A stretch of DNA of 43,477 bases from Candidatus Staskawiczbacteria bacterium (GCA_903854535.1 CAINWR010000071.1:1-43477), one strand, 5' to 3'. Positions 1 through 17,423 are shown, counted from the stretch's first letter. A program made the numbers and translations. Notes: generated from the letters alone by a model not told the origin.

Positions 1-67
1 AAAAAATTACAAAATAAAAAATAAATATTCTGCTGATATTGAGCCACATGAGATATTTTTAGATAAT

Positions 68-1930
68 TTGGAAAAAGACAAGGAAATAGAGTCTGGATTT
101 TCTGAAAAGAAATTTGAGGTTCCTTTAAGAGAAAAAAGATCCTATTTCTTGATGGGAATTTTTCTTTTATTTGTTATTTTTATTTTTATAAAGGTTTTTT
201 ATTTGCAAATTTTGCAGGGTGATAATTTCCATATTCTAGCAGATAATAATAAAGGCAAGATTGTATTAATCAAGCCAGAAAGGGGTATAATTTATGATAG
301 AAACTTAAAAAAATTAGTTGCCAACGCTCCATCTTTTGATTTAGTTTGTGATAGAAGAAATTTTGGAGAATCAAGTGATGCTGTCTATAAGAAAATCTCA
401 AATTTAGCTGAAATTATTGGCAAAGATCCATTAGATTTAGAGAGACAAATTTTAGATTCTCTAGAGTATAACGTGTTAATTGCTGAAAATTTAACTCATG
501 AGCAAATATTGGTTTTAGAATCGAGAATTAATGAATTTAATGGTTGTAGTATAGAGAATAATGTGATAAGAAATTATATTTTTGCTCATCCATTTGCACA
601 TTTACTTGGTTATGTGAGTAGGGTAAGTAAGGATGAATTTAGTAATAGAAAAGATTACGCAATAAATGACAGTTCTGGTAAAGCTGGCATTGAGAAATTT
701 TATGAGGATTATTTAAGAGGAATTCCCGGCAAGCTTGAATCTCAAAAAACTGCGCTTGGAGTTCAGAAAGGTCAAAAAGTAATTTCAGAACCATTGCCTG
801 GTAATAATATAATTTTAAATATTGATGCAGATCTTCAGCAAAAGATTTATGAAGAATTAGGAAAAACAATTAAAAATATTGGATCAAAAAAAGGCGCTGT
901 TGTAGCTGTAGATCCAAGAGATGGAAAAGTTTTAGCTCTAGTGTCTTACCCTTCTTATGATAATAATCTTTTTTCGAAAGGTATATCTCAAAAAGATTTA
1001 AGTTCAATTATTAATGATGCATCTCAGCCATTTTTTAATAGAGCTATCTCTGCTCAATATCCTACAGGTTCTACTATAAAGCCATTTGAGGCTTCTGGAG
1101 CTTTACAAGAAAATTTAATATCTCCTGATAAAGTAATTAATGATCCGGGTTTTATTGAAATAAGAAGTAAATATGATCCTGATGTTGTATATAGATTTGG
1201 AGGTGTTACTCCTCATGGATTGGTAGATATGAGAGAGGCGATTGCTGTATCTTCAAATATTTATTTTTATACAATTGGCGGAGGTTATCAAGATCAACAA
1301 GGATTGGGTCCAACTCGCATTGCCAAATATTTATCTTTATTTGGTTGGGGCGTTAAAACAGGAGTTGATTTACCTGGAGAATATAAAGGGTTTATTCCAA
1401 GTCCAGAATGGAAAAAGGAATATAAAAAAGAAAATTGGTGGGACGGGGATACATATAACTTATCTATAGGACAGTCAGATTTGCAAGTAACTCCATTGCA
1501 GTTGGCAATGGCTTATTGTACAATAGCTAATGGTGGAACTTTGTATAAACCTCAAGTTGTAGATAAAATAATCGATATATCAACATCAGAACAAAAAGTA
1601 ATTAAAGAATTTGAGCCAGAAATTGTAAGGCAAGGTTTTATTGATGCAAAAAATTTAAAGGTTATTCAAGAAGGTATGCGTGATGGCGTAGCAAAATCTT
1701 ATGGTTCTTCATACTTTTTAAATAGTTTGCCAGTAGCAGTGGCTTCAAAAACCGGAACAGCTGAAATAGGAAAAGCGGGTTTCTATAATACTTGGGCTTC
1801 AGTTTATGGGCCTTATGAAAACCCAAATATTGTTTTGATTGTTACAATTGAAGAAGTAGAAGGTTTAAGATCAGGGTCTCTAACTGTAGCTCGAGAGGTT
1901 TTAAATTGGTATTTTAATAAAAATAAATAA
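68..1930 (+). CDS. mrdA: Class B penicillin-binding protein (PBP2-type peptidoglycan transpeptidase)
   Basis: 620-aa ORF with an N-terminal TM helix (FLMGIFLLFVIFIFIKVFYL). Transpeptidase motifs STIKP (SxxK), SSN (SxN) and KTGTA (KTG) are present. The TTG start is taken from the ORF track and not verified. Confidence 0.85.
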   Translation: MEKDKEIESGFSEKKFEVPLREKRSYFLMGIFLLFVIFIFIKVFYLQILQGDNFHILADNNKGKIVLIKPERGIIYDRNLKKLVANAPSFDLVCDRRNFGESSDAVYKKISNLAEIIGKDPLDLERQILDSLEYNVLIAENLTHEQILVLESRINEFNGCSIENNVIRNYIFAHPFAHLLGYVSRVSKDEFSNRKDYAINDSSGKAGIEKFYEDYLRGIPGKLESQKTALGVQKGQKVISEPLPGNNIILNIDADLQQKIYEELGKTIKNIGSKKGAVVAVDPRDGKVLALVSYPSYDNNLFSKGISQKDLSSIINDASQPFFNRAISAQYPTGSTIKPFEASGALQENLISPDKVINDPGFIEIRSKYDPDVVYRFGGVTPHGLVDMREAIAVSSNIYFYTIGGGYQDQQGLGPTRIAKYLSLFGWGVKTGVDLPGEYKGFIPSPEWKKEYKKENWWDGDTYNLSIGQSDLQVTPLQLAMAYCTIANGGTLYKPQVVDKIIDISTSEQKVIKEFEPEIVRQGFIDAKNLKVIQEGMRDGVAKSYGSSYFLNSLPVAVASKTGTAEIGKAGFYNTWASVYGPYENPNIVLIVTIEEVEGLRSGSLTVAREVLNWYFNKNK

Positions 1931-1931
1931 T

Positions 1932-2225
1932 ATGGATTTTATAATCAAAAATATAAAAGACAATGCTTTAAATATTTCAAGAAGAATTGGTTATTTGATG
2001 CTGGGTGCAGAAAGTAGTAATGTTTATAATATTGTAAGAAAATTAACTGGTAACCATTATCCTAGGTTTCATATTTATTTAAAACAACAAGGCCAAGATT
2101 TTATTTTTAGTTTACATTTAGATCAAAAAGCTCCAGTTTATCAAGGAACTCACGCTCATAACGGCGAATATTTTGGCCCTGTAGTAGAGGATGAAGCAGA
2201 TAGAATTAAACAATTATTAAAATGA
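1932..2225 (+). CDS. Small hypothetical protein (97 aa)
   Basis: ORF packed 1 nt after the PBP2 stop and overlapping the next start (ATGA). Native AT-rich composition. No motif recognised. Confidence 0.5.
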   Translation: MDFIIKNIKDNALNISRRIGYLMLGAESSNVYNIVRKLTGNHYPRFHIYLKQQGQDFIFSLHLDQKAPVYQGTHAHNGEYFGPVVEDEADRIKQLLK

Positions 2226-2935
2226 TAACAGTATTATACGAAGATAATCATATAATTGCAGTGCAAAAACCTGCTGGAGTTTTGACGCAGGGCGATGGAT
2301 CTGGCGAAAAAAGTTTGATGGATTTTGTAAAAGATTATCTTAAAGAAAAATATAAAAAACCAGGAAATGTCTTTCTTGGACTTGTGCATAGACTAGACAA
2401 ACCAGTTTCTGGAATTGTTTTGTTTGCTAAAACTTCCAAAGGCGCCTCGCGTTTGTCTGAACAATTTCGTAATCATACAATACAAAAAACTTATCATGCC
2501 ATTGTGCTCGGCAAATTGAAAAATGAAAAAGGCCAAATAAAAGAAAAAATAAATAAAATAAGTTTTTTTGCCGAAGGTTTTGGAGAAAAATCTGACGAAG
2601 AATTATTGGCCGAAATTAAAAAAGCTACAAAAACTCGTACTGGAGAGCTTAGTTATAAAGTTGAAAGTTATAAAGTTCATAAAGATGGATCTGTTTATTC
2701 TTTGGTAAAAATTATGCCAAAAACTGGAAGATTTCATCAAATAAGAGTGCAGATGGCAGAAATGGGAAATCCAATTTTAGGAGATAGAAAGTATAGTAAT
2801 GTAAATATGCCAGATTGGAAAGATAATAATGCTATTGCTTTATGTGCTACTGATATTGAGTTTAAGCTTGCAACAAAAGATGAAATAAAAAAGATTTCTA
2901 TTGATTTGCCAGAATCTTGGCAAAAATATTTATAA
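2222..2935 (+). CDS. RluA-family pseudouridine synthase
   Basis: HRLDKPVSG catalytic-Asp motif, with FHQIRVQ and GDRKY downstream motifs typical of the RluA family. Confidence 0.85.
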   Translation: MITVLYEDNHIIAVQKPAGVLTQGDGSGEKSLMDFVKDYLKEKYKKPGNVFLGLVHRLDKPVSGIVLFAKTSKGASRLSEQFRNHTIQKTYHAIVLGKLKNEKGQIKEKINKISFFAEGFGEKSDEELLAEIKKATKTRTGELSYKVESYKVHKDGSVYSLVKIMPKTGRFHQIRVQMAEMGNPILGDRKYSNVNMPDWKDNNAIALCATDIEFKLATKDEIKKISIDLPESWQKYL

Positions 2936-2970
2936 AAAAAGAGACCTAAGAACAGAATGTTTTCAGGTCT
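2934..2970 (-). terminator. Terminator of the zinc-ribbon orphan gene
   Basis: Minus strand agacct...aggtct stem followed by c and a T7 run. Confidence 0.6.
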
Positions 2971-3000
2971 GGCCAGAACGGCTCTGGTTGGTTTCTTGAA

Positions 3001-3147
3001 CTATTTTTGTTCTTTATTTTCTGCTTGGAATGTGCCACCACAATGCGTGCACTTATATATCCATGCTTGGTTCTTTGGACCACGCAAATAAACATGGCGT
3101 CCACAAGTAGGGCAGGGAATCAGAGTGTCTTTTTCAGTCTTCTCCAT
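3001..3147 (-). CDS. Small zinc-ribbon protein (48 aa), GC-richer orphan
   Basis: CPTCG...CTHCG four-Cys ribbon. GGAGG lies 4 nt before the internal ATG at 3147, preferred over the longer ORF-track start at 3198. A stem-loop with T-run lies downstream on the minus strand. Confidence 0.55.
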   Translation of the reverse strand: MEKTEKDTLIPCPTCGRHVYLRGPKNQAWIYKCTHCGGTFQAENKEQK

Positions 3148-3188
3148 AAGTCCTCCAAGGTTTGAAAATTTTGAAACACAACAAAAAT

Positions 3189-3217
3189 ATTCTAACATAT
3201 TTTCAATGCAACATCAA
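3189..3217 (-). promoter_or_regulatory. Promoter of the zinc-ribbon orphan gene
   Basis: Minus strand reads TTGATG-N17-TAGAAT, divergent from the NrdD-tail promoter. Confidence 0.45.
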
Positions 3218-3250
3218 TATTACGCATTATGTGGTAAAAGTTATTCACAG

Positions 3251-3279
3251 TTGACATCATTTTTTGTTTAGAATACAAT
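3251..3279 (+). promoter_or_regulatory. Promoter of the NrdD-tail gene
   Basis: TTGACA-N17-TACAAT. Confidence 0.5.
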
Positions 3280-3334
3280 AAATTAATATCAGACAAAAAA
3301 GGTCGGTTATCAATCAATTAAAAATAATATTTTT

Positions 3335-3646
3335 ATGGAAACAGCACAAAATATATCAATCGATAATGTTTGCCACGATTGCAAAAAAGAAATTTTAATA
3401 AAAGGCCAGGAAATAGAAAATGGAGTTTATCTTACTTACGATAATGCTGGGGGGAAAATAAATGCTTTTAAATGTAATGATTGCTATGCGAAAAATCCAG
3501 CTCTGACAAATTTTCAAAAGTGTGAAGTTTATTCAAGGGTAGTGGGTTATATACGGCCAGTTACGCAGTGGAATAATGGTAAAAAACAAGAATATTCAGA
3601 AAGAACTGAATATGTTATGCCAAGTGGAGGGGCTTGTGGATGTTAA
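3335..3646 (+). CDS. Stand-alone NrdD C-terminal module (Zn ribbon plus glycyl-radical loop), 103 aa
   Basis: CHDC and CNDC pairs followed by SRVVGYIRPVTQWNNGKKQEYSER. This matches the C-terminal tail of class III (anaerobic) ribonucleotide reductase. No catalytic barrel is present. Confidence 0.7.
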   Translation: METAQNISIDNVCHDCKKEILIKGQEIENGVYLTYDNAGGKINAFKCNDCYAKNPALTNFQKCEVYSRVVGYIRPVTQWNNGKKQEYSERTEYVMPSGGACGC

Positions 3647-3706
3647 TTTTAAAAAAGCCAGGGGTTTTAAAGCTTCTGGTTTTTTGTTATTATAAAGAAA
3701 AATACT

Positions 3707-3783
3707 GCTCGACAATAAATTTTTTCTGCGCCGAGAGCCTCTCTACGGGGCACCCTCGTGCTCGAAAAAATTAATTGTCTCGC
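3707..3783. repeat. Palindromic element (family C) in the SOD gene leader
   Basis: AT-rich outer arms (cgacaataaattttttc / gaaaaaattaattgtctcg) enclose a GC-rich core. It shares the 19-mer gcctctctacggggcaccc with 15543-15561. Confidence 0.8.
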
Positions 3784-3793
3784 AAACTTGCTT

Positions 3794-4456
3794 ATGGAAA
3801 AATATAATTTACCAAAATTACCATATGAATATAATGCGCTTGAGCCATATATGTCTTCGGAAGTTTTAACACTGCATCACACAAAGCATCATCAGGCTTA
3901 TGTGAATTCTGCCAATGATTTAAGTGCAAAGTTAGAAGATGCAAGAAAAAACCTGCCTGCCGGACAGGCAGGTAATTTGGATTTAGATTTTAAATCAATT
4001 TTAAAATCATTGTCTTTTAATGTGGCAGGTCATATTTTGCATGAAACATTTTGGAAAGTAATGGCTCCACAAAATTCTGGAAAAAATAATATTGAAAATA
4101 ATGCGCCAAAACTTTTAGAGCAAATAAATAAGGATTTTGGAAGCCTTTCCGCCCAAGGCGGACCAGCCTCGGGCTGGGATAGATTTAAAAAAGAATTTTC
4201 AGAAACAGCAAAATCAGTTGAGGGATCAGGCTGGGCTTTGCTAACTTGGCACAAAGAACATGGAAATTTAAATATAATTCAAGTTGAAAAGCATAATGTA
4301 AATCTTTATCCAGAGCAGAAAATTTTACTTGCTTTAGATGTATGGGAGCATAGTTATTATTTAGATTATAAAAATGATAGAGCTAAGTTTGTGGAGAATT
4401 GGTGGAATATTGTAAATTGGCAAGAAGTTGAGAAAAAATTTCAAAACTGCTGTTGA
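3794..4456 (+). CDS. sod: Fe/Mn superoxide dismutase
   Basis: N-terminus LPKLPYEYNALEP, plus HHTKHHQAYV, AGHILHETFW and DVWEHSYYLDYKNDR metal-ligand motifs. Start moved to ATG 3794 because the ORF-track extension only translates a repeat element. Confidence 0.9.
   Translation: MEKYNLPKLPYEYNALEPYMSSEVLTLHHTKHHQAYVNSANDLSAKLEDARKNLPAGQAGNLDLDFKSILKSLSFNVAGHILHETFWKVMAPQNSGKNNIENNAPKLLEQINKDFGSLSAQGGPASGWDRFKKEFSETAKSVEGSGWALLTWHKEHGNLNIIQVEKHNVNLYPEQKILLALDVWEHSYYLDYKNDRAKFVENWWNIVNWQEVEKKFQNCC
3951..3973. repeat. GC-rich palindrome inside the SOD gene coding sequence
   Basis: acctgcctg-ccgga-caggcaggt encodes LPAGQAG in frame. Confidence 0.7.
4149..4177. repeat. Two adjacent GC hairpins inside the SOD gene coding sequence
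   Basis: ccgcc-caa-ggcgg and ccagcc-tcg-ggctgg encode SAQGGPASG in frame, between the conserved DFGS and FKKEF segments. Confidence 0.7.
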
Positions 4457-4470
4457 CAGCAGTTTTTTTT
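4446..4470 (+). terminator. SOD gene intrinsic terminator with the stop codon in its loop
   Basis: actgctg-ttga-cagcagt followed by a T8 run. Confidence 0.75.
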
Positions 4471-4526
4471 ATGATATTATAATATATGGTTTTTAATTCC
4501 CGTTCTCATGATTCGGAGTTTTGTTA

Positions 4527-4724
4527 ATGAGTAAAAAAAAGTCAGGACAAATTTTCCAGAAAGAAAAATTTGATCAAGCCAAGGAAGAGCTTGTTGGCGA
4601 GTCAATTGGATTGGAGGTGGCCCTCAAACATTGGCCAGTTGATGGCGTTCCGCAAGGAGAAGACCGTGGGGATCGGGTACCGTTCTTCACGGTTGATGGG
4701 GTCGATGAATTAATCGACGAATAG
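4527..4724 (+). CDS. Small acidic hypothetical protein (65 aa), GC-richer orphan
   Basis: ATG at 4527 is preceded by GGAG 8 nt upstream. GC-rich composition, and a T8 run follows at about 4773-4780. No motif recognised. Confidence 0.45.
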   Translation: MSKKKSGQIFQKEKFDQAKEELVGESIGLEVALKHWPVDGVPQGEDRGDRVPFFTVDGVDELIDE

Positions 4725-4837
4725 ATTATGCTCGTGGTTGATTGCCCAAACGCAAGGATGTGTGAGGGCTTTTTTTTGTGCTTGATTTTAGGGATTTAAA
4801 ATAGTAATATTAAATAATTAACTTTTAATAAAAATTT

Positions 4838-6331
4838 ATGTCAACAATTGAGGAATTAAGAAAAGTTCGTTTGGAAAAATTAAAGGCATTAGAACATGCT
4901 GGGATTTTACCTTATCCTGCAAAAACCAAAAGAACTCATAGAATTTGCGAAGCTTTAGAAAATTTTGATAAATTATCAATTCCAGATAAAGATGGAGAAT
5001 TGCAAGAAATAGTTTTGGCTGGAAGAATTATGGCGCAACGTGGGCATGGTGGAGCAACATTTTTAGATATTTATGATGGTTCGACTTCGCTCACTGCAGG
5101 TGGCAAAATTCAAGTAATTATTAAAGAAGATAAAGTTGGGCCAGCAGGATACAAATTTTTTATAGATAATTTTGATATTGCGGATTTTGTAGAAATTAAA
5201 GGAACTTTGTTTACAACTAAAAGAGGCGAAAAAACCATTGAAGCTACAGATTATAAAATGCTTTCTAAGGCACTTTTGCCTTTGCCAGAAAAATGGCATG
5301 GGCTTGAAAATGTAGAAGAAAAATTAAGAAAAAGATATTTAGATATTTTGTTTAATCCAGAAGTAAGGGAAATGGTAGAGAAAAGAAGTATTTTTTGGCA
5401 ATCAATGCGTGAATTTTTACTTAAAAAAGGTTTTATGGAAGTAGAAACTCCGGTGCTTGAATCTACTCCTGGGGGAGCAGATGCAAGGCCTTTTACAACA
5501 CATCATAATGCAATGGATATGGATGTTTATTTGCGAATTTCTATGGGAGAACTTTGGCAGAAAAAATTAATGGTAGCTGGTTTTGAAAAAGTTTTTGAAA
5601 TTGGTAGACAATTTAGAAATGAAGGAATGGATGCAGAGCACTTGCAAGATTACACGCAAATGGAATTTTATTGGGCTTATGCAGATTACCAGCAAGGTAT
5701 GGAATTTATTGAAGAAATGTATAAATATATAATAGAAAAAACTTTTGGTACTCTTAAATTTAAAATTAAGGGATTTGATGTAGATTTTTCTCGCAAATGG
5801 GAAAAGTATGATTATGTTTCTACAATTGCAAAATACACAAAAATAAATATTCAAGAAGCTAGTTTATCTGAAATGGAAAAAGCTTTGCAAAAATTAAAAA
5901 TTGATTATGACAAAAATGGTTTTAACATAACAAGAGCCATAGATAATTTGTGGAAATATTGCAGGAAAAACATTGGAGGTCCGGGATTCTTAATTAATGT
6001 ACCAGTAACTATGGAGCCTTTGGCTAAAAGAATGGAGAGCCACAATGATTTAGTACAAAGATTTCAAGTAATTATTGGTGGTTCAGAAAATGGTAAAGGC
6101 TTTTCTGAATTAAATGATCCAATTGACCAAGCAGAAAGATTTGCAGATCAACAAAAATTAAGAGATTCTGGTGATGATGAAGCGCAAAGATTTGATCAAG
6201 ATTTTGTGGAGGCCTTAGAACATGGAATGCCACCAACTTGTGGTTTTGGAGTTTCAGAAAGATTGTTTGCATTTTTAATGGATAAGCCAGCCCGCGAATG
6301 CCAAATTTTCCCATTAATGCGCCCCCGCTGA
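4838..6331 (+). CDS. lysS: Lysine--tRNA ligase, class II
   Basis: OB-fold N-domain and class II core with FRNEGMDAEHLQDYTQMEFY (motif 2) and a GFGVSERL C-terminal motif. Confidence 0.95.
   Translation: MSTIEELRKVRLEKLKALEHAGILPYPAKTKRTHRICEALENFDKLSIPDKDGELQEIVLAGRIMAQRGHGGATFLDIYDGSTSLTAGGKIQVIIKEDKVGPAGYKFFIDNFDIADFVEIKGTLFTTKRGEKTIEATDYKMLSKALLPLPEKWHGLENVEEKLRKRYLDILFNPEVREMVEKRSIFWQSMREFLLKKGFMEVETPVLESTPGGADARPFTTHHNAMDMDVYLRISMGELWQKKLMVAGFEKVFEIGRQFRNEGMDAEHLQDYTQMEFYWAYADYQQGMEFIEEMYKYIIEKTFGTLKFKIKGFDVDFSRKWEKYDYVSTIAKYTKINIQEASLSEMEKALQKLKIDYDKNGFNITRAIDNLWKYCRKNIGGPGFLINVPVTMEPLAKRMESHNDLVQRFQVIIGGSENGKGFSELNDPIDQAERFADQQKLRDSGDDEAQRFDQDFVEALEHGMPPTCGFGVSERLFAFLMDKPARECQIFPLMRPR
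5081..5101. repeat. GC-rich 21-nt in-frame patch in lysS
   Basis: tcgacttcgctcactgcaggt encodes STSLTAG, within the otherwise conserved FLDIYDG-GKIQV stretch. Confidence 0.5.
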
Positions 6332-6338
6332 GCGGGGG
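6322..6338 (+). other. GC hairpin cccccgc-tga-gcggggg with the lysS stop codon as its loop
   Basis: Read directly. A second imperfect hairpin follows at 6343-6363, and no T-run follows either one. Confidence 0.7.
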
Positions 6339-6380
6339 TAATGGCACGCTTAGCGTGTCGCCCAAAAAATTAATTCATAG

Positions 6381-6405
6381 AAAAAGAGCAATGGGGTATT
6401 GCTCT
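6381..6405 (-). terminator. Terminator of orphan gene 6715-6425
   Basis: Minus strand agagcaat-acccc-attgctct followed by a T5 run. Confidence 0.65.
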
Positions 6406-6424
6406 GCGTCTGCCTTTAGTGCGA

Positions 6425-6715
6425 TTAGAATGGGAAAAGGTCTTTTTCACAAACCCAACTTCTTCGCTGACGGCCCTTTATTCCAGAATAAACGACACAA
6501 TAGATAGGTTCGTGAGTCCATCTCCTATACCTGATTTTAGCAATAAATCCAACTTCGAGTTGTTGGCTTATCGCTGTGTATCTTGTATCAGGGCGAAACC
6601 TAACCTTGTTGTATACTTGAAATTTTGCTGTTTCGCCTTGAGCTTCACACTTTTCGATCTTTTCAATAGTCTTGGATGTGGCCCCGCAAATTTCGCATTC
6701 ATAAGAGGTTTTCAT
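6425..6715 (-). CDS. Hypothetical protein (96 aa) with an N-terminal CxxC, GC-richer orphan
   Basis: ORF on the opposite strand to its neighbours, with a CEICG motif. A minus-strand terminator lies at 6405-6381. Composition is intermediate in GC. Confidence 0.5.
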   Translation of the reverse strand: MKTSYECEICGATSKTIEKIEKCEAQGETAKFQVYNKVRFRPDTRYTAISQQLEVGFIAKIRYRRWTHEPIYCVVYSGIKGRQRRSWVCEKDLFPF

Positions 6716-6800
6716 AATTTTATCTCTATGAGTAGTGGTGTAACTACAGTTTATGAGCTAATAAAATTCTATCATAATTATTATATATTGTCAAAATATT

Positions 6801-8093
6801 ATGAATAAAATATTAATTGCAAATATTGCAAAATATGTGGGTGAGGAAGTGGAGCTTTCGGGTTGGGTGGCGAATTTTAGGTCTTCTGGAAAGATTGCTT
6901 TTTGGCAAATAAGAGATGGCTCGGGATTTTGCCAAGCAGTATTAGATACAAAAATTTTGTCGGAAGTTTTGTGGAAAGAGTCAGAAAAAGTCACACTTGA
7001 AACTTCTGTTAAAATTTCGGGAGTAGTTTCAAGACATCCTAAAAAAGAAGAATATGAATTGCAAGTAAAAGATTTTTCTTTTTATCAAATTGCACAGGAT
7101 TATCCAATTTCCAAAAAAGAGCATGGCCCAGATTTTTTGTTAGATAATAGGCATTTATGGCTAAGGTCAAGTCACCAGTGGGCAATTCAGAGAATTAGAA
7201 ATACTTTGATTTTAGCAACTTATGAATTTTTCAATCAAAATAATTTTATAAAAATAGATTCACCAATTTTAACTCCATCAGCTTGTGAAGGCACAACTGA
7301 ACTTTTTGAGATAGATTATTTTGGTGAACAAAAAGCTTATTTGAGCCAGTCGGGCCAGCTTTATTTGGAAGCTGCAATTATGGCTCATGGAAAAGTTTTT
7401 GATTTTGGGCCAGTCTTTAGAGCGGAAAAATCTAAAACTCGCAGGCACTTAACTGAATTTTGGATGATGGATGCAGAAATGGCTTTTGCAGATTTAGAAG
7501 AAAATATGCGAGTACAAGAAGAGCTTATAAGATACATGGTAAAATCTGTGTTAGAAAAAAATCAACAAGAATTGGCAATTTTGGAACGAGATATTAAGCC
7601 TTTAGAAAATATTTTAAAACCATTTTATAAAATTACACATGCAGAAGCTGTAAAGAGATTGCATGAGTTGGGGAGTGATATTAAAGAAGATGATGATATG
7701 GGAGCTGATGATGAAACAATTTTGACTAAACAATATGATAACCCTATTTTTGTAACTCATTATCCTAAAGATGTAAAAGCATTTTATATGAAAAGAGACC
7801 CCGTAGATAATTCTCGTGTTTTGTGTGCAGATTTGTTGGCTCCTGAAGGCTATGGCGAAATTATTGGGGGAAGCCAAAGAGAAGATAATTATGACGCTCT
7901 TTTAGAAAGAATCAAAGCACATAATTTACCAGAGGAAGCTTTTACTTGGTATTTGGATTTGCGAAAATATGGATCTGTGCCACATAGTGGATTTGGCTTT
8001 GGGCTGGAAAGAATTACAGCCTGGGTGTGTGGAATTGCGCACATTCGCGAAACAATCCCATTTCCAAGAACAATAAATAGATTAAATCCTTAA
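6801..8093 (+). CDS. asnS: Asparagine--tRNA ligase
   Basis: 430-aa class IIb synthetase. FRAEKSKTRRHLTEFWMMDAEMAF and GFGFGLERI motifs are typical of AsnRS rather than AspRS. Confidence 0.9.
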   Translation: MNKILIANIAKYVGEEVELSGWVANFRSSGKIAFWQIRDGSGFCQAVLDTKILSEVLWKESEKVTLETSVKISGVVSRHPKKEEYELQVKDFSFYQIAQDYPISKKEHGPDFLLDNRHLWLRSSHQWAIQRIRNTLILATYEFFNQNNFIKIDSPILTPSACEGTTELFEIDYFGEQKAYLSQSGQLYLEAAIMAHGKVFDFGPVFRAEKSKTRRHLTEFWMMDAEMAFADLEENMRVQEELIRYMVKSVLEKNQQELAILERDIKPLENILKPFYKITHAEAVKRLHELGSDIKEDDDMGADDETILTKQYDNPIFVTHYPKDVKAFYMKRDPVDNSRVLCADLLAPEGYGEIIGGSQREDNYDALLERIKAHNLPEEAFTWYLDLRKYGSVPHSGFGFGLERITAWVCGIAHIRETIPFPRTINRLNP

Positions 8094-8095
8094 AA

Positions 8096-8188
8096 CTCGG
8101 CAACAAACTTTTTTCGGCTGTTGGTAGCCCTCTTTGTCTCCCTTCGGGAGACAAGTAGACCAAGGCCTTCAAAAAGTTCATTGCCTCG
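8096..8188. repeat. Family-C-like nested palindrome with a C(UUCG)G hairpin, in the leader of the HxGH nucleotidyltransferase gene
   Basis: Outer arms ctcggcaacaaacttttt / aaaaagttcattgcctcg. The inner perfect hairpin ttgtctccc-ttcg-gggagacaa lies at 8134-8154. Confidence 0.75.
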
Positions 8189-8202
8189 TTCCCTTATTTC
8201 CT

Positions 8203-8619
8203 ATGAAAAGAAAAAAAGTTTTAGTTTTTGGGACATTTGATGGATTGCATAAAGGACATTTGTATCTTTTTAAACAGGCAAAAAAGCATGGTGATTATTT
8301 AGTGGTTGTGGTAGCAAGAGATTTGACTGTCAAAAAAGTTAAGGGGCATTTACCAAAATTTGAAGAGCAAGAAAGAGTAAAGACGGTTTATAAATGTAAA
8401 TTGGTAGATGATGCTCAGTTGGGTAATTTAAAAAATTATTATAAAAAAATAAAAGAAATAAAACCTCAAGTAATTTGTTTAGGTTATGATCAAGTTGCTT
8501 TTGTAGAAAATTTGGAAAAAGAGATAGAAAAGTATAAGATGAAAATAGAAATCATTCGGCTAAAGTCATATTTACCAAAAAAATATAAATCATCATTATT
8601 AAACGAAAAATCAGCCTAG
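8203..8619 (+). CDS. HxGH nucleotidyltransferase (cytidylyltransferase / FAD-synthetase-like family)
   Basis: VLVFGTFDGLHKGHLYL signature. Start moved to ATG 8203 because the upstream part of the ORF-track call translates a palindromic element. Confidence 0.75.
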   Translation: MKRKKVLVFGTFDGLHKGHLYLFKQAKKHGDYLVVVVARDLTVKKVKGHLPKFEEQERVKTVYKCKLVDDAQLGNLKNYYKKIKEIKPQVICLGYDQVAFVENLEKEIEKYKMKIEIIRLKSYLPKKYKSSLLNEKSA

Positions 8620-8842
8620 GCCGTTTTTGTTTGTATGAAAAAAGGAGAAAGCGTCCTTTACAAATGGACATTCTTTCTCCCTGACTAGAAGCGAGATCGC
8701 TGTCGGTGAAGTGGCCCTATGCCACCTCGTTTTTTTCTGCGATCGCACAGCGCTAAGCTCTCTAGTCCTAATAATATATTTGCATATTTTAGTAAAAAAG
8801 TCAACAGTTTACGATATTTGCAAAGTTTGGTATTATAAAATA

Positions 8843-8905
8843 AGCGTTTAGCGTTTAGCGTTTAGCGTTTAGTTACTAAACCCTAGAACCTATACCCTAG
8901 ACCCT
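8843..8905. repeat. Heptad-repeat hairpin (family A): (gcgttta)x4, loop, then (ctaNacc)x4
   Basis: Read directly. The arms pair over ~29 positions with a C-C mismatch every 7 nt. On the sense strand 7 of 8 heptads begin with TAG or TAA. It ends 7 nt before the serS ATG. Confidence 0.85.
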
Positions 8906-8911
8906 CAAGAA

Positions 8912-10216
8912 ATGTTAGATTTAAATTTTATTAGAGAAAACCCTGATGTTGTGAAAAAAGCTTGCGAAAATAAAAGCATCAAAGTAGATGTAGATGCTGT
9001 TTTATTTTTAGACAAACAAAAACGAGCTTTAATGGTTGAAGTTGAAAATTTAAAAGCCGAGCAAAACAAACTTACAAAAGCTGGCAAGGGTGATGTAGAT
9101 AGAGAACAGCTTATTTTGCAAGCCAAAGAACTCAAAGAAAGAATAAAAGCAAAAGAGCCAGAACTTGAAAAAATAGATGAAGATTTGAAAACTTTACTTT
9201 TGAAATTACCAAATATTCCTACAGATGATGTGCCAGTAGGGCATAGCGAAGAGGAAAATGTGATAATTAAAACTGTAGGTAAAAAGCCAGTTTTTGATTT
9301 TGAACCTAAGAGCCATTGGCAATTAGCTGAGTCTTTGGATTTGATAGATAAAGAAAGAGCATCAAAAGTTGCAGGTTCAAGGTTTGCATATTTAAAAGGG
9401 GATTTGGTTATTTTGCAATTAGCAATGTTTAGATTTGCTTTAGATGTTTTATGTAGTGAAAAAACTTTGGCTCAAATTGCTAAAAAGGCAGGACTTAAAG
9501 TAAGTACCAAAGCTTTTGTGCCAGTACTTCCACCATTTATGATAAAAACAGAACCTTATTCTGCAATGGATAGACTAGAACCCAAAGAAGAAAGATATAA
9601 AATAGAAGGTGAAGATTTGTGGCTTCAGGGATCAGCAGAACATGTTTTGGGAACTATGCATATGAATGAAATATTATCAGAAGATGTTTTTCCAATTCGT
9701 TATGCAGGTTATGCTACAAGTTTTAGAAAAGAAGCTGGTACTTATGGTAAGGATATGGAAGGAATTATTAGAATGCATCAGTTTGATAAACTTGAAATGG
9801 AAAGTTTGACTACTGCTGAGAATTCTTTGCAAGAACACTTTTTTATGGTGGCTATTCAAGAATATTTAATGGGTCAATTGGGATTACCTTATGAAGTAAT
9901 GTTAAAATGTACTTTTGATATTGGTAAACCGAATGCAAGAGGTGTGGATATAAATGTATGGCTTCCAGGTCAAAATAAATATAGGGAAACTCACACAGCA
10001 GATTATATGACAGATTATCAGGCCCGTAGATTGCAAACAAAAGTTCGTAGAAAAAATGGTAAAGTGGAATTGGTGCACACTAATGATGCTACTGCTTTAT
10101 CGCAACGTCCATTGATTGCAATTTTGGAAAATTATCAACAAAAAGACGGAAGTATATTGGTGCCAAAAGTTTTGCAAAAATACACAGGATTTAAAATAAT
10201 AAAAGCAAAGAAATAA
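8912..10216 (+). CDS. serS: Serine--tRNA ligase
   Basis: N-terminal coiled-coil arm and class II core with FRKEAGTYGKDMEGIIRMHQFDKLE. Confidence 0.95.
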   Translation: MLDLNFIRENPDVVKKACENKSIKVDVDAVLFLDKQKRALMVEVENLKAEQNKLTKAGKGDVDREQLILQAKELKERIKAKEPELEKIDEDLKTLLLKLPNIPTDDVPVGHSEEENVIIKTVGKKPVFDFEPKSHWQLAESLDLIDKERASKVAGSRFAYLKGDLVILQLAMFRFALDVLCSEKTLAQIAKKAGLKVSTKAFVPVLPPFMIKTEPYSAMDRLEPKEERYKIEGEDLWLQGSAEHVLGTMHMNEILSEDVFPIRYAGYATSFRKEAGTYGKDMEGIIRMHQFDKLEMESLTTAENSLQEHFFMVAIQEYLMGQLGLPYEVMLKCTFDIGKPNARGVDINVWLPGQNKYRETHTADYMTDYQARRLQTKVRRKNGKVELVHTNDATALSQRPLIAILENYQQKDGSILVPKVLQKYTGFKIIKAKK

Positions 10217-10663
10217 ATGAAATTATATCACGGTACATCAAAAAAATTAGAAACTCTAAAAAGACAACAAACGCAAACTATGAAACGTTTAAATTCAGAA
10301 GGCAAAATTATTAACGAAGGAGATTTGCTTAATGCAATTTATTTTACGCCCAAGTTTGGTTTTGCTTTAGCAATGGGTGCGAGACCAGAGGGGCATACTA
10401 AAATAGATAATAGTGAAGACAAAATAACTTTTGAAAAACTAGAGTTTTTTGATCCAGAAAAAGATGTTTATATTTATGAAATTGATTCTGAAGATATTCC
10501 CGAAAGCAAGTTAAGAAAAGTTGACGAAACACAATATGTAGTTGATATGGATGAAGTTGTTCCGACGGGAGAACAAAAGCTAAAAGCCGAAGAAGTTTTA
10601 AAATATTACGAACTCGTAAATTGGAAAGGAAAAGAACTACATAGAGAAATTAGATTGAAATAA
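10217..10663 (+). CDS. Hypothetical protein (148 aa), possible H-Y-E ADP-ribosyltransferase-like fold
   Basis: ORF starts immediately after the serS stop. MKLYHGTS at the N-terminus, then AIYFTPKFGFALAMG and VYIYEID. The fold assignment is speculative. Confidence 0.55.
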   Translation: MKLYHGTSKKLETLKRQQTQTMKRLNSEGKIINEGDLLNAIYFTPKFGFALAMGARPEGHTKIDNSEDKITFEKLEFFDPEKDVYIYEIDSEDIPESKLRKVDETQYVVDMDEVVPTGEQKLKAEEVLKYYELVNWKGKELHREIRLK

Positions 10664-10807
10664 AAACCGCCAAGGGTTAAATCGACCGAAATGACTATCT
10701 CTAATTCGTGCGAATACAGGATATACGGAATTTTAAAAATGTTTTACAATCAATCATCTTACTAACATCTGTAAAATGATTAGCGAAACAAAATTATTAA
10801 GAAATAA

Positions 10808-11569
10808 ATGAAAACACTTATTATTTTACATGGTTGGCAGAGTTCGGGATCTAAATGGCAAAAAGTAAAAGAAAAAATCGAAAACTCTTCGGCTAGTTTA
10901 GGGCGGGGCGGAATTAGAGTTTTGGCTCCAGATATTCCCGGATTCAAATCTGAATCTGAGCTTAATAGGCCATGGGTTTTAGATGATTATATAAATTGGT
11001 TTGAAGATTTTGTAATGCAATCAAAATTGGAATATCCTGATATTGCAAATGGTTTTTATTTGCTAGGTCACAGCTTTGGCGGAAGAATGACAATTAAAAT
11101 TGCAGCTAAAAAGATTTTTAAATTAAATGGAGTTATTTTAGTATCAGCTGCTGGCATAAAAAGAAATCAAGCATTTTATGCACCTGCTATTGGATTTGCT
11201 GCTAAAATTGTAAAAGCTTTTAAGTTGGGAGATAAGCCAACTGGGAAAAATTTATATAATTTTCTAAGAATATTTTTTTACAGATATGTTATACAGAAAA
11301 CAGATTATTTAAATGCCAAAGGGAACTTAAATGAAACAATCAAAAATATTTTAGCTGAAGATCTTAAAGAAATTTTGCCATTTATTGATGAACGAGTAAA
11401 AATAATTTGGGGTAGAAAAGATAAAATTACACCACTGAGCGATGCTTATTTAATGCAGGAAAAAATTCCAAATTCAGAATTGCATATTTTAGAGCAAACA
11501 GGGCACATGCCATACCTTGATTGCCCAAATGAACTAGCAGAATCAATTTTAGAATTTATTAAATATTAA
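10808..11569 (+). CDS. Alpha/beta-fold hydrolase
   Basis: ILHGW start, GHSFGG nucleophile elbow and a C-terminal GH motif (TGHMPYLD). Confidence 0.8.
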   Translation: MKTLIILHGWQSSGSKWQKVKEKIENSSASLGRGGIRVLAPDIPGFKSESELNRPWVLDDYINWFEDFVMQSKLEYPDIANGFYLLGHSFGGRMTIKIAAKKIFKLNGVILVSAAGIKRNQAFYAPAIGFAAKIVKAFKLGDKPTGKNLYNFLRIFFYRYVIQKTDYLNAKGNLNETIKNILAEDLKEILPFIDERVKIIWGRKDKITPLSDAYLMQEKIPNSELHILEQTGHMPYLDCPNELAESILEFIKY

Positions 11570-11570
11570 T

Positions 11571-13187
11571 ATGTCAATTTATAAATTTTTAATTTTTTTG
11601 TGGATAGTAGTTTCTGTAAAACAGATTTTGTTTTGGGTTTATTTGTGGCAATTAAAAGAATATCATATTCCAAGATTTATTGATCATTTCCGAACAGCCA
11701 AAGGAAAAGAATTGCTTTTTAACAAGTTGCGCATTGCAAAAATAATTTTATTATTTAGTCCAGGTTTTGTATATTATTATTTTACAGAATATATGGATTA
11801 TTTTGCTGTTTTATTTTTATATTTATTATTTTCAATTTATTTAGTAGAAGATATCTTATTTACCAAACAAATTTTAAGAAAATCTGCCAAGAAGCCAAAA
11901 TTTACTAAGAAATCAGCATTTTTAGTTTTGGTTTGCTTGATATTTATAGCCCTGTTCTTGGTTGTAGTTGAAAGTATGGTAGATTTATTAATTTTAGATA
12001 TTATTTTACCAATTATAATTTCAGGAATTGTTTTGTGTTTTCAACCATTTGTAGTTTGGGTCAGAAAGGGGATTTTGACAAAAGCCGGGAAAATTATTTT
12101 GCAAAATTCAAATCTCAAAGTGATTGGAATTACGGGTAGCTATGGCAAAACCACCACTAAAGAATTTTTGGCAACAATTTTGGCTAGCAAATTTAAAGTG
12201 CTGGCAACTCAAGAACATAAAAATTCAGAAATGGGGATTGCTCAGACTATTTTAAATGATTTAAAACTTGAACATGAATTTTTTATTGTAGAAATGGGAG
12301 CTTATAAAAAGGGAGGAATAAAATTATTGTGTGATATGGTGCATCCTGAAATTGGAATTGTAACAGGTGTAACTGTGCAACATTTGAGCTTATTTGGTAA
12401 TTTAGATAATTTACTTTCAGCAGAAGGTGGTAGGGAATTAAAAAGTGCATTACCTTTGCATGGATTTATGGTGGTAAATGGTGAAAATAAATATTGCATT
12501 GATTTGTATAAAAAGATAAATATCAAAAAGCTAATTTACACAGAAGAGGGTAATAAAATTGATTCAGATATTTTTGCTAAAGAAATAGAAGTTACTAAAG
12601 ATAAACTTTCTTTTGTAGCTATAACTAGAGATAAGCAAATGGCTCATTTTGAAGTAAATATTTTAGGTAAGCATAATTTACAAAATTTATTAGGTGCTAT
12701 TTTGACAGCTAAAAAACTTGGAATGAGTTTGGAAGATATTTCACAAGCTTGTAGAGATATAAAACCAGAACAAGCTGGGGTTACAGCAAAAATTGGAATA
12801 AATAATATAAATATTATTGATTCATCTTATTCATCTAATCCTGATGGGGCTTTGGCAGATTTAGAGACTTTAAAATTATTTTCTGGTAAAAAAATTGTGG
12901 TAATGTCTTGTTTAATAGAATTGGGTAAACAATCAGCGCAAGAACATTATAAAATTGGAAGGAGAATTGGGGAAGTTTGTAATTTAGCAATAATTACAAC
13001 TAAAGATAAATTTGAAGAAATAAAAAAAGGAGCTGTTGATGGTGGAATGGAAGCAAGAAATATTTTATTTATAGAAAATCCCCAAGAAATTTTTCACAAA
13101 ATCACAACATTTTGCATAGATGGTGACACAGTTTTGCTCGAAGGTCGGGTTCCAGATAAATTAATAAAATTATTAAATGAAAAATAA
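11571..13187 (+). CDS. murF: MurF-type UDP-MurNAc-peptide ligase fused to an N-terminal multi-TM domain
   Basis: GITGSYGKTTTKE P-loop and Mur ligase middle and C domains. The first ~170 aa are five or six hydrophobic helices instead of the usual cytosolic domain 1. Confidence 0.8.
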   Translation: MSIYKFLIFLWIVVSVKQILFWVYLWQLKEYHIPRFIDHFRTAKGKELLFNKLRIAKIILLFSPGFVYYYFTEYMDYFAVLFLYLLFSIYLVEDILFTKQILRKSAKKPKFTKKSAFLVLVCLIFIALFLVVVESMVDLLILDIILPIIISGIVLCFQPFVVWVRKGILTKAGKIILQNSNLKVIGITGSYGKTTTKEFLATILASKFKVLATQEHKNSEMGIAQTILNDLKLEHEFFIVEMGAYKKGGIKLLCDMVHPEIGIVTGVTVQHLSLFGNLDNLLSAEGGRELKSALPLHGFMVVNGENKYCIDLYKKINIKKLIYTEEGNKIDSDIFAKEIEVTKDKLSFVAITRDKQMAHFEVNILGKHNLQNLLGAILTAKKLGMSLEDISQACRDIKPEQAGVTAKIGINNINIIDSSYSSNPDGALADLETLKLFSGKKIVVMSCLIELGKQSAQEHYKIGRRIGEVCNLAIITTKDKFEEIKKGAVDGGMEARNILFIENPQEIFHKITTFCIDGDTVLLEGRVPDKLIKLLNEK

Positions 13188-14460
13188 GTTTAAGCTCGCC
13201 TTGCAGCGAAGCAGGCCAATTTCAATATCACTAAGCCCGAATGTAGAAAAGGATGATGTTTTACTTGCTTTGAATTTGCTTATAAGGCCTTGGAAATGGA
13301 AGAAGGGAAAAGAAATTAAAATATTAGAAAATGAATTTGCTAATTATCTTGGAGTAAAATATGCAGTTTCTTTTAATTCAGGAAGATCTGCTTTGTTTGC
13401 AATTCTGAAAGCCTTAGAATTACCAGAAAAAAGTAATATTTTTTTCCAAGCTTTTACATGCAATGCTTCAATAAATCCAGCTTTGTGGCTTAAGTTAAAT
13501 CCTATTTATGTTGATTGTAATCAAGAAAATTTTAACATAGATATTGATGATTTGAAAAAGAATATTCAAAATAATCCTGAAGCTAAAATATTAATTATTC
13601 AACATACTTTTGGAACTCCTGCAAACATGAAAGAAATTTTGAAAGTTGCAGAAGAAAATAATTTGATTTTAATAGAAGATTGCGCACATGCTTTAGGTGC
13701 GCAGTATTATGGGAAAATGCTTGGAACTTTTGGTAAAGCTGGGTTTTTTAGTTTCTCTAGAGATAAAGTTATTTCCTGTGTTTATGGTGGTATGGCAGTG
13801 ACAAATGACCCTTCACTTGCAAAAAAACTTTTACAACTTCAGGGTAAATTCAGACAGCCTGGTACATTTTGGATTTTGCAACAATTATTACATCCAATTT
13901 TATTGTATTTTATAATTTTGCCTATTTATATTTTTTTTAATTTAGGAAAATTATTTTTGATTTTTACTCAAATATTACATATTTTATCAAAAGCTGTAAG
14001 TTATGAAGAAAAGCAAGGTAAAATGCCAAATTATTTTCCAAAAGCTTTGCCAAATGCTTTGGCAATTTCAGCCTTAAATCAATTTTCAAAGTTAGACAAA
14101 TTTTATATTCACAGGAAAAAATTATTTGATTATTATTTAGAAAATTTAAAAAACACAGATTTTGTTTTACCAGAAGTTTCGCGGGAATACAAACCAAGTT
14201 ATTTAAGATTTACCATAAGACACCCAGATGCTCACAAGATAATTTATAATGCCTGGCACGGAGAAAATATTTTGCTTGGGGATTGGTATACAACTGTAAT
14301 TGCTCCATTTGATACAAACTTAGATAAGATGCATTATAAAGAAGGGAGTTGTTTAAATGCTGAGATTTTGGCAGAAACAACATTAAATTTACCTACACAT
14401 ATAAATATTAAAATTGAAGATGCTGAACGTATAGTAAATTTTTTAAAACAATGGAAATAA
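13177..14460 (+). CDS. DegT/DnrJ/EryC1/StrS-family PLP aminotransferase
   Basis: NSGRSAL, EDCAHALGA and FSFSRDK (PLP-lysine) motifs. Overlaps murF by 11 nt and the next gene by 10 nt. Confidence 0.8.
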   Translation: MKNKFKLALQRSRPISISLSPNVEKDDVLLALNLLIRPWKWKKGKEIKILENEFANYLGVKYAVSFNSGRSALFAILKALELPEKSNIFFQAFTCNASINPALWLKLNPIYVDCNQENFNIDIDDLKKNIQNNPEAKILIIQHTFGTPANMKEILKVAEENNLILIEDCAHALGAQYYGKMLGTFGKAGFFSFSRDKVISCVYGGMAVTNDPSLAKKLLQLQGKFRQPGTFWILQQLLHPILLYFIILPIYIFFNLGKLFLIFTQILHILSKAVSYEEKQGKMPNYFPKALPNALAISALNQFSKLDKFYIHRKKLFDYYLENLKNTDFVLPEVSREYKPSYLRFTIRHPDAHKIIYNAWHGENILLGDWYTTVIAPFDTNLDKMHYKEGSCLNAEILAETTLNLPTHINIKIEDAERIVNFLKQWK

Positions 14461-15509
14461 AAGAAATAATACAAAAAAATATTTGGGAGGATTTTCTTTC
14501 GCAATGCCAAGAAAAAACTTTTTTGGATTCTTGGGATTGGATAGAATTTAATGAGAAAATGGGTAGAAAAAGTTGGAGGTTTGGAATTTTTGAACAAGAC
14601 AAATTAATTGCAGTGTTTTTAGTTTCAAAGATTGGCGCTAAAAGAAGTACGTTTTTGTTTGTACCTCATGGGCCAGTGGTTTTAGATGATAAATCACAAA
14701 TTATAAATTATAAATCACAAATTATTGAATTATTAGTTAATAAACTTAAAGAAATCGCTAGCCAAGAGAGTGCGAGCTTTATTAGAATTTCTCCAATTTG
14801 GGAGAGAACAAAAGAAAACTCAGATATTTTTAAGAAATTAGGCTTTAGATTATCTCCAATCCATATGCACCCAGAAGTAACTTGGGAGTTAGATATTAGT
14901 AAATCAGAAGAAGAAATTTTGAAAAATATGCGCAAAACTACTAGATATCTAATTCGACAAGCAGAGAAAAACAAAGATATAGAAATTATAAAATCAGAGA
15001 ATCTTGATGATTTAAAATATTTTGATTATGTGTATAAAGAAACAGGTAAAAGACAAAAGTTTGTTGTTTACAAGGAAGAATATATTAGAAATGAATTCTT
15101 GACTTTTGTAAAAGATAAAGAGATTTGTTTATTTTTGGGTAAATATAAAGGCAGAGTTGCTGTTGCTGCATTGTTTGTTTTTTGGCAAAATGGTTGCTTC
15201 TATCATCATTCGGGATCTCTGCCAGAATATAATAAATTCCCCGTATCTTATTTGCTTCAATGGGAGGCAATTAAAGAAGCAAAAAAAAGGGGGTGTAATA
15301 TTTATAATTTTTGGGGAATTGCTACAGATATTAAAGATTATGATGATGTAAAAAAGTCAAAACATCCTTGGGCGGGACTTTCTCTTTTTAAGATGGGTTT
15401 TGGGGGGGAGAAGAAGGAATATGTAAAAACTCAAGATTATGTTATTTCTTGGAAATATTGGATAAATTATTTAATTGAAGTTGCTCGTAAATTTAAAAGA
15501 GGTTTATAA
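14451..15509 (+). CDS. FemAB-family peptidoglycan branch-peptide aminoacyltransferase (FemX-like)
   Basis: Size and layout fit the FemAB family, with an RKTTRYLIRQAEKN segment. Placed in a murF-ftsQ context. Assignment is motif-level only. Confidence 0.65.
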   Translation: MEIKEIIQKNIWEDFLSQCQEKTFLDSWDWIEFNEKMGRKSWRFGIFEQDKLIAVFLVSKIGAKRSTFLFVPHGPVVLDDKSQIINYKSQIIELLVNKLKEIASQESASFIRISPIWERTKENSDIFKKLGFRLSPIHMHPEVTWELDISKSEEEILKNMRKTTRYLIRQAEKNKDIEIIKSENLDDLKYFDYVYKETGKRQKFVVYKEEYIRNEFLTFVKDKEICLFLGKYKGRVAVAALFVFWQNGCFYHHSGSLPEYNKFPVSYLLQWEAIKEAKKRGCNIYNFWGIATDIKDYDDVKKSKHPWAGLSLFKMGFGGEKKEYVKTQDYVISWKYWINYLIEVARKFKRGL

Positions 15510-15510
15510 A

Positions 15511-15589
15511 GCTTGCCAAATCAAATTTTTCTGCGCGCCACGGCCTCTCTACGGGGCACCCGCGTGCTCGAAAAATTTATTTGGCTCGC
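15511..15589. repeat. Palindromic element (family C) in the ftsQ leader
   Basis: Outer arms gccaaatcaaattttt / aaaaatttatttggc. Same ttttctgcgc...gcctctctacggggcaccc...cgtgctcgaaaaa core as the SOD gene copy. Confidence 0.8.
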
Positions 15590-16419: not shown

Positions 16420-16447
16420 GTTGTAGTTTGTAGGTTGTAGTGAGTAG
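16417..16447 (+). repeat. Five TAG triplets at exact 7-nt spacing, the first being the ftsQ stop codon
   Basis: tag gttg tag tttg tag gttg tag tgag tag, with TAG at 16417, 16424, 16431, 16438 and 16445. Confidence 0.9.
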
Positions 16448-16450
16448 CCG

Positions 16451-16547
16451 TCATTGCGAGGAAGTTGCAACTGACGAAGCAATCTCAAAGGTTGTTTTGT
16501 AATCAGCAGCTGGGATTGCTTCGGGTATTGCCATACCCTCGCAATGA
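16451..16547. repeat. Nested inverted repeat (tcattgcgagg...cctcgcaatga enclosing cgaagcaatc...gattgcttcg)
   Basis: Outer 11-bp arms at 16451-16461 and 16537-16547. Inner 10-bp arms at 16475-16484 and 16514-16523. Confidence 0.85.
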
Positions 16548-16570
16548 TAATTAAAATCGTGCAAGAGAAA

Positions 16571-16600
16571 AGCCCGTGTCCTTGTTAGAACGCGGGCTTT
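16571..16600 (-). terminator. Terminator of the GC-rich orphan gene 17208-16645
   Basis: agcccg...cgggct stem flanked by A and T runs. Confidence 0.6.
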
Positions 16601-16644
16601 TTGCATTTCTGCACTGAATCAATTGCCTTCCGTGGCAATGATCC

Positions 16645-17208: not shown

Positions 17209-17270
17209 TGAAAGTCTCCCGTGTAAAGGTGCTTGGGCAGGGGACAACGTCCCCATTCACCCATATATTA

Positions 17271-17418: not shown

Positions 17419-17423
17419 TATTT

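Follow-up and report, generated by a model that had tools for sequence, protein, structure and literature searches.

The Fe/Mn superoxide dismutase (SOD) gene of a Candidatus Staskawiczbacteria bacterium was found to carry two short GC-rich palindromic patches, both of which are insertions relative to related SODs and both of which belong to families of elements (family A, a 30-nt double hairpin; family B, a 21-nt single hairpin) that are scattered through numerous genomes and phyla, where they occur in coding regions, between genes and in tRNA fragments. We consider it likely that two families of miniature palindromic repeats have inserted into an otherwise normal SOD, that the inserts are translated as loops, that the elements are mobile in a REP/RPE-like manner (RPE: Rickettsia palindromic element) and that, in case of family A, they would be spread with the help of a GIY-YIG protein. 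Throughout this text, the window denotes the complete stretch of DNA that was analysed (43,477 nt, GC 31%), which is contained almost entirely in two lake-water metagenome runs; judged by its SOD relatives, it derives from a Staskawiczbacteria-like member of the Patescibacteria (CPR).

The host gene occupies positions 3794–4456 on the plus strand, starts with the ATG at 3794 and encodes a protein of 220 residues (MEKYNLPKLPY...) in which Pfam identifies Sod_Fe_N (PF00081, E 3.7e-27) and Sod_Fe_C (PF02777, E 2.7e-32), and which is matched by the archaeal SOD 1ma1 with an E of 1e-63. Residues H28, H29, H80, H83, D182 and H186 (HH..H..D..H) form invariant columns in 31 SOD homologues, with H28, H83, D182 and H186 presumably being the His/His/Asp/His metal ligands. 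The AF2 model of the protein (mean pLDDT 87) displays the N-terminal alpha-hairpin and C-terminal alpha/beta domains with the expected helices and strands. There is no other contig on record that encodes an identical SOD protein, and a search for RNA runs containing the gene returned none. At its 3′ end, the SOD frame enters a terminator-like hairpin (AAAACTGCTGT-TG-ACAGCAGTTTT, positions 4443–4466, plus strand; inverted repeat I3, 11 nt, 100% complementary) that is followed by a T run, with the stop codon (4454–4456) lying in the hairpin loop; in the SOD gene of contig L002 the stop codon comes earlier and is followed by the same terminator hairpin.

The first-pass annotation had described GC-rich palindromes lying in frame inside an Fe/Mn SOD gene, and the palindromes lie where it had placed them, with the identity of the gene confirmed by Pfam as above. 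Patch 1 is a family B element of 21 nt that forms a single hairpin (CCTGCCTG-CCGGA-CAGGCAGG, positions 3952–3972, plus strand); its palindrome extends over 3951–3973 (ACCTGCCTG-CCGGA-CAGGCAGGT) and the inserted codons (3953–3973) encode LPAGQAG. Patch 2 is a family A element of 30 nt (positions 4148–4177, plus strand, with a boundary that is ambiguous by ~3 nt) that encodes SAQGGPASGW and consists of hairpin 1 (TCCGCC-CAA-GGCGGA, 4148–4162) and hairpin 2 (CCAGCC-TCG-GGCTGG, 4163–4177). The two palindromes previously reported for this patch are not separate entities, instead forming one double-hairpin unit.

Alignment to characterised SODs, which the first-pass annotation had proposed, revealed that the four best solved structures (1ma1, 1p7g, 3ak1, 4ffk) exhibit a 7-residue gap precisely at LPAGQAG and a 10-residue gap at LSAQGGPASG; the latter falls exactly between DFGS and (F/W)xRFK, the segment that patch 2 had been claimed to split. 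The residues of the inserts are absent both from solved SODs and from the nearest relatives and are hence not conserved loops. The closest SOD homologues, which show 85–89% identity outside the gaps, carry neither insert, and an alignment of 31 homologues likewise placed the gaps precisely at the palindromes. The SOD of L081, a sister contig of 78 kb from a JGI metagenome that is syntenic with window positions 1–14,500, does not contain patch 1, and patch 2 appears as a clean 30-nt gap in comparison to both L081 and contig L001. The window contains nine distinct GC-rich perfect hairpins as opposed to 2.3 ± 1.7 in Markov simulations, with three of the nine located in the SOD gene; neither element was present in 100 shuffles of the window with up to three mismatches permitted; and both patches are predicted to fold stably as ssDNA (patch 1: -11.1 kcal/mol, z -5.1; patch 2: -12.4 kcal/mol, z -3.1). 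The hairpin excess, the shuffles and the stable folds together exclude chance as the origin of the patches. Elements A and B each occur in a single copy within the window.

In the predicted structure, both inserts are situated in loops between helices (the first-pass annotation had expected surface loops): patch 1 in loop 53–65, the turn between the two long N-terminal helices, and patch 2 in loop 116–126, between helices 105–115 and 127–140 (AlphaFold; pLDDT 68–77 in the insert loops, flanked by confident helices). Neither patch interrupts the conserved HH..H..D..H residues. Run X2, which stems from the source lake, contains a related contig of minor abundance (depth 3.3 vs 20.5) that lacks the 21 nt of patch 1 and retains patch 2; patch 1 is thus polymorphic in the source population and is probably the younger insertion.

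The dispersed nature of patch 2 first became apparent from contig L081, where a degenerate family A copy (TCCACCCAAGGCGGACTCGTCTCGGGCGGG, L081 18610–18645) lies in a Mur ligase gene and reads STQGGLVSGG, with the window orthologue being devoid of it. Searching a genome collection with a degenerate family A pattern yielded at least 120 stretches in comparison to ~0.3 chance matches (our own estimate), and searching it with the exact family B 21-mer (CCTGCCTGCCGGACAGGCAGG) also yielded at least 120 stretches, again compared to an estimated ~0.3 by chance. The palindromes are therefore not unique to the SOD gene, with members of both families lying in unrelated genes, between genes and within tRNA fragments. 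Nor are they peculiar to this kind of organism: among the matches listed, family A is found in many CPR classes, Omnitrophota, Planctomycetota, Dehalococcoidia and others, and family B in Bacteroidota, Omnitrophota, CPR, Planctomycetota, Nitrospira, Chloroflexota and one Woesearchaeota MAG, although many of the matches stem from MAGs, for which taxon labels may be imprecise. Cultured Flavobacteriaceae/Bacteroidota that contain family B include Aureibaculum, Psychroserpens and Maribacter.

The consensus of family A is TCCGCC-NNA-GGCGGA-CCNGCC-TCK-GGCNGG. In hairpin 2, the third base and the base with which it pairs covary: of 123 copies, 110 show perfect pairing, distributed over five variants, at positions that the search pattern had left free. 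The two positions immediately upstream of the element are mostly occupied by T (111 of the 123 copies at -2 and 88 at -1). The genes that host family A include those for DnaJ, MiaA and GAPDH-like proteins, and in four metagenomes family A copies from other contexts pile up on patch 2. In case of family B, a purine directly precedes the element in 118 of 125 copies. Around 10% of family B copies lie inside the loop of another hairpin (control positions: 3%), which represents a modest enrichment, and one copy lies within an NTS-like repeat; for family A, no enrichment of insertion into the loops of other hairpins was detected. Phages were considered as vectors and set aside: a collection of viral contigs gave no family A matches and contained family B in only 10 stretches, without a clear pattern.

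Several more distant Staskawiczbacteria SODs exhibit A(Q/P/K)GG(P/Q)ASGW at the site of patch 2. When compared to the window, the insert DNA of these genes is identical at 19–30 of 24–30 nt (third positions: 6–10 of 8–10), whilst their flanking SOD codons are 72–78% identical with third positions at 0.48–0.60, which is near saturation: conservation in the insert DNA greatly exceeds that at the synonymous sites of the gene around it. In a neighbour-joining tree the A-bearing SODs are found at no fewer than seven places, and the window SOD is nested within an insert-free clade. The strong conservation of the insert DNA, the covariation in the stem of hairpin 2 and the recurrence of family A at one SOD site in scattered lineages would also suit hairpins that are not selfish but are locally selected structures of the SOD mRNA or DNA, acting as a pause or processing site, as a stabiliser or as a target for recombination or transformation, and NTS/SsnA has been reported to modulate transformation (PMC11893778). 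In spite of this, we regard such a role as unlikely: these sequences are shared by more than 100 unrelated genes as well as by intergenic DNA and tRNA fragments of many phyla, the closest relatives are devoid of both inserts and a co-occurring strain of patch 1, there is no T run for termination at the patches, Rfam provides no match, and single substitutions in the copies of relatives break stem pairs with no compensation on the other arm.

A further possibility is that family A entered the SOD of the Staskawiczbacteria ancestor once, long ago, and was repeatedly and precisely lost thereafter, with neither recurrent insertion nor ongoing mobility at this site. The site is identical in all A-bearing SODs, and perfect palindromes are readily deleted by replication slippage; however, around 110 of the 120 nearest homologues do not contain the insert, meaning that many independent exact deletions would be required, the insert is identical at 24/24 to 27/30 nt where synonymous sites are near saturation, and the junctions differ, with some copies following GS(F/L) and others replacing GS. 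We give this scenario little chance of being correct.

Returning to the reading of dispersed elements that insert as mobile DNA, analysis of the family A loci revealed a clade of genes for small, single-domain GIY-YIG nucleases that are bordered by family A hairpins. In loci selected through family A, 13 of 16 small GIY-YIG ORFs (80–140 aa) lie within 100 nt of a family A copy, which is usually found 6–30 nt upstream of the GIY-YIG start codon. In the reverse test, using 80 loci picked by the GIY-YIG protein alone (a search made with a four-sequence alignment), the hairpin-1 motif was located at most 150 nt from the gene in 60 loci, and all 12 strict family A copies in these loci were likewise no farther than 150 nt from it. 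Typically, a tRNA 5′ fragment ending in ...AGCAGTT is followed by the A element, GGCTGT and the ATG, often with downstream copies as well. Pfam assigns the proteins linked to family A to GIY-YIG, and their nearest solved relatives, which they also match, are the UPF0213 structures 1ywl and 1zg2. The 43-kb window itself holds no GIY-YIG gene, and no recurrent neighbour or enzyme gene, GIY-YIG included, was found in the family B loci.

Sequences resembling tRNA also carry family A copies, which lie in their D, anticodon and T loops. We considered whether these could be tRNA introns and rejected this: in silico excision of 201 family A copies restored a single tRNA, and this had an intact twin nearby. 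Intact tRNA copies were identified beside A-bearing fragments using ARAGORN. The restoration of only one tRNA with an intact twin nearby indicates that the tRNA contexts represent partial duplicates and not interrupted sole genes. Two further arrangements of this type were observed. In L378, a Moraniibacteriota MAG, seven tandem units spaced 103 nt apart are present 115–733 nt downstream of a GIY-YIG gene, each composed of a tRNA-like fragment and a family A element (tagtgtaagcagtt-A-gactgttaatc). In the Dehalococcoidia MAGs L168 and L128 (62–64% GC), tRNA-like D-arm fragments carry two hairpin elements ~10 nt apart, one a TCCGCC..GGCGGATCAGCC..GGCTGA variant and the other a family A copy, and both adjoin a GIY-YIG ORF.

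Elements A and B both have a length that is a multiple of three and, upon direct translation, prove free of stop codons in all six frames; their insertion therefore never truncates a protein. Tabulation of the reading frames, a further proposal of the first-pass annotation, showed that the coding copies of both families strongly prefer one frame. For family A, 73 of 125 copies among the matches listed are found in long ORFs, where 53 are read in the SAxGGPASG(W/G) frame, 9 in the antisense frame PARG(G/W)SAxGG and 11 in the remaining four frames combined; for family B, 67 of 126 copies among the matches listed are in long ORFs, with 42 of the 67 read in the xLPAGQAG frame, as in the SOD. This bias towards one frame points to selection on the encoded peptide and thus implies that the inserts are translated. 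Most likely, translation continues through the inserts and yields short loops, rich in Gly, Ala, Ser and Pro, that are tolerated by the SOD. The gaps relative to related SODs, the dispersed families and the frame preference together support the original suggestion of an RPE-like, in-frame insertion of small palindromic elements. That the elements are instead removed after transcription in the manner of a tiny intron, or skipped through programmed ribosomal bypass as for T4 gene 60 or the byp elements of yeast mitochondria, is highly improbable despite their resemblance, as GC-rich hairpins in AT-rich coding DNA, to byp and mitochondrial GC clusters and despite the family A copies in tRNA-like loops, given that a length of 3n, openness in six frames and a dominant frame would all be needless without translation, that direct reading of 3944–3982 and 4139–4186 shows no stop after the upstream (take-off) codon, that no matched pair of take-off and landing codons borders patch 2, that the codons flanking the patches are ancestral in empty alleles (including both Asn codons flanking patch 1, which are already present in the empty allele), and that the excision of 201 family A copies had the outcome described above.

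Elements A and B can be compared to several known systems. Rickettsia palindromic elements, reportedly described by Ogata et al. in 2000 as in-frame palindromic repeats in functional protein genes, had been suggested as a parallel. They resemble A and B in that both are palindromes in frame in functional genes, tolerated and patchy among orthologues, and that RPEs are translated, as A and B probably are; RPE-1 reportedly measures ~100–150 bp and is restricted to Rickettsia, whereas A and B comprise 30 and 21 nt and are near-identical across CPR, Omnitrophota, Planctomycetota, Bacteroidota and further groups. The parallel consequently holds for in-frame insertion and not for membership of the RPE family, from which A and B (21 and 30 nt) are set apart by size and host range, being far shorter and far outside Rickettsia. 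The small dispersed repeats (SDR) of cyanobacteria, said to have been described by Elhai et al. in 2008 with a length of 21–27 nt, are likewise mobile-looking, with a conserved hairpin and compensatory changes, and are sometimes nested in other repeats; they differ from A and B in being reportedly limited to a cyanobacterial subgroup, in having other sequences and in having no reported frame preference or nuclease partner. GC clusters/byp of yeast mitochondria and the hop in T4 gene 60 are also said to involve GC-rich hairpins that invade AT-rich genes without destroying them; these elements are, however, reportedly bypassed or frame-disrupting, neither 3n nor stop-free, and in need of take-off and landing codons, whereas A and B leave every frame open and are most likely read through.

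REPs and RPEs that lie within genes have been described before (Di Nocera et al. 2013, PMC3733652). REPs as described there are, like A and B, palindromes of 20–40 bp with many dispersed copies (counted across genomes in our case); they often occur as dimers, some of those in ORFs add residues, and they are thought to be non-autonomous with an enzyme acting in trans. REPs are mostly extragenic, whereas well over half of the A and B copies among the matches listed lie in long ORFs, and they are associated with RAYT tyrosine transposases, whereas family A is associated with GIY-YIG genes. A GTAG/CGTC tag, as found at the end of REPs, was present within 8 nt of the element in only a few of 122 family A and 125 family B copies.

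Chenal et al. (2025, PMC11893778) described Ssn, small GIY-YIG ssDNA nucleases that cut beside their own hairpin repeats (NTS/dRS3 and SRM), and pointed out the likeness of Ssn/NTS to insertion sequences and to REP/RAYT pairs. Family A has the same arrangement, a small single-domain GIY-YIG gene flanked by its own GC-rich dispersed hairpin repeat, and this arrangement is not seen for family B; the rate of association is 75% for family A compared to 71% reported for Ssn in PMC11893778. Comparison of the repeats also reveals differences: NTS are rarely located in genes (2%, PMC11893778) whilst family A is mostly located in ORFs, and the SRM motif (HGTCWYN(0-2)YYVSBRHN(0-5)WNVSBRGN(0-2)RNCYNB) was present in 0 of 122 family A and 0 of 125 family B copies on either strand, whilst an NTS control matched. 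Furthermore, the nuclease genes of family A are located among partial tRNA copies, and the words tRNA, Patescibacteria and Candidatus do not appear in the text of PMC11893778. No Rfam family reached the gathering score in the window, with only noise at E up to 10 around the SOD gene. A full-text literature search with the element sequences and peptides returned nothing relevant, and concept searches gave only REP, RPE and Ssn papers; thus, we could not find a prior description of families A and B.

By analogy to these systems, we infer mobility for the elements and a role for the nuclease. Elements A and B would be, or would have been, mobile non-autonomous DNA of the REP/RPE kind; the GIY-YIG partner may spread or maintain family A through ssDNA hairpins, as Ssn does on NTS/SRM; insertion of family A would occur immediately 3′ of TT; and selection would retain coding copies only where these fall in loops and in a benign frame. 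A more far-reaching version of this, which we put forward tentatively and consider somewhat doubtful as a whole, is that A and B constitute an undescribed class that would be the smallest known bacterial mobile DNA: 3n in length, open in six frames with one benign frame, spread across phyla and, in case of family A, made or maintained by an Ssn-like GIY-YIG cassette that is located among partial tRNA copies and inserts next to TT in ssDNA.

How REP and RPE palindromes move and come to be present in essential genes has been a question since the discovery of RPEs in 2000, and if a GIY-YIG cassette does write family A into ssDNA, this would offer a tractable answer to the entry of such repeats into genes; on the same far-reaching reading, A and B would add a defined flexible loop to proteins while spreading across phyla. 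Both families are of synthesisable length, near-invariant across phyla and constructed so as to do no harm in any frame, and the candidate enzyme belongs to a class recently shown to cut hairpin-bearing ssDNA, which makes cutting or seeding of family A by the nuclease directly testable. The inserts mark positions at which a protein has accepted a loop, and the recurrence of the peptides LPAGQAG, SAxGGPASGW and PARGGSAxGG in a large number of unrelated proteins from uncultured bacteria can mislead homology searches, alignments and domain calls.

When indels were listed gene by gene between the window and L081, in-frame inserts that are short and GC-rich turned up repeatedly in both sequences. 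A TSLTAG insert is located in the lysyl-tRNA synthetase (LysRS) gene of the window (5084–5101, GC 0.56) and a SASLGRG insert in an alpha/beta hydrolase gene (10889–10909, GC 0.67), both relative to L081 and both without a clear palindrome; neither found a match among the 416 loci compared. The LysRS gene ends in a pair of neighbouring perfect hairpins that are rich in GC (CCCCCGC-TGA-GCGGGGG and CACGC-TTA-GCGTG, window 6322–6357) and overlap its stop codon. In regions 16000–17500 and 31000–32000 of the window, the GC content reaches 0.36–0.41, compared to 0.31 for the whole; several GC-rich patches occur there, as does a minus-strand ORF (16645–17256) within an otherwise plus-strand block.

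A third dispersed repeat of ~60–80 nt occurs in the window at 3717–3772 and 15528–15573 and in L001 at 2930–2947, and has a core rich in GC (CTGCGC..CCTCTCTACGGGGCACCC.CGTGCTCG) that is framed by AT-rich inverted arms. One window copy lies ~30–40 nt upstream of the SOD start and the other upstream of an FtsQ-like gene; L001 also contains the repeat upstream of its SOD gene, and L081 does not have it at the corresponding place. In runs X1 and X2, the repeat is covered 3–8 times as deeply as the adjacent sequence. Upstream of the SOD gene, a free-standing ORF of 103 residues (window 3335–3646, plus strand) corresponds only to the C-terminal glycyl-radical end of the anaerobic ribonucleotide reductase NrdD (Pfam positions 510–562 of 562) and is kept directly upstream of SOD in L081, L083 and L084, which suggests a "spare part" radical domain placed beside an oxygen-defence gene.

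Finally, different short inserts are present in other loops of the Staskawiczbacteria SODs P0014, P0069, P0045, P0116, P0047, P0063 and P0099, including PFDTAQGR, PFGSAQGG, SFGKAQDK, NPPAGG and GPKGYPGSG, which may point to further families of coding-tolerant GC-rich elements.
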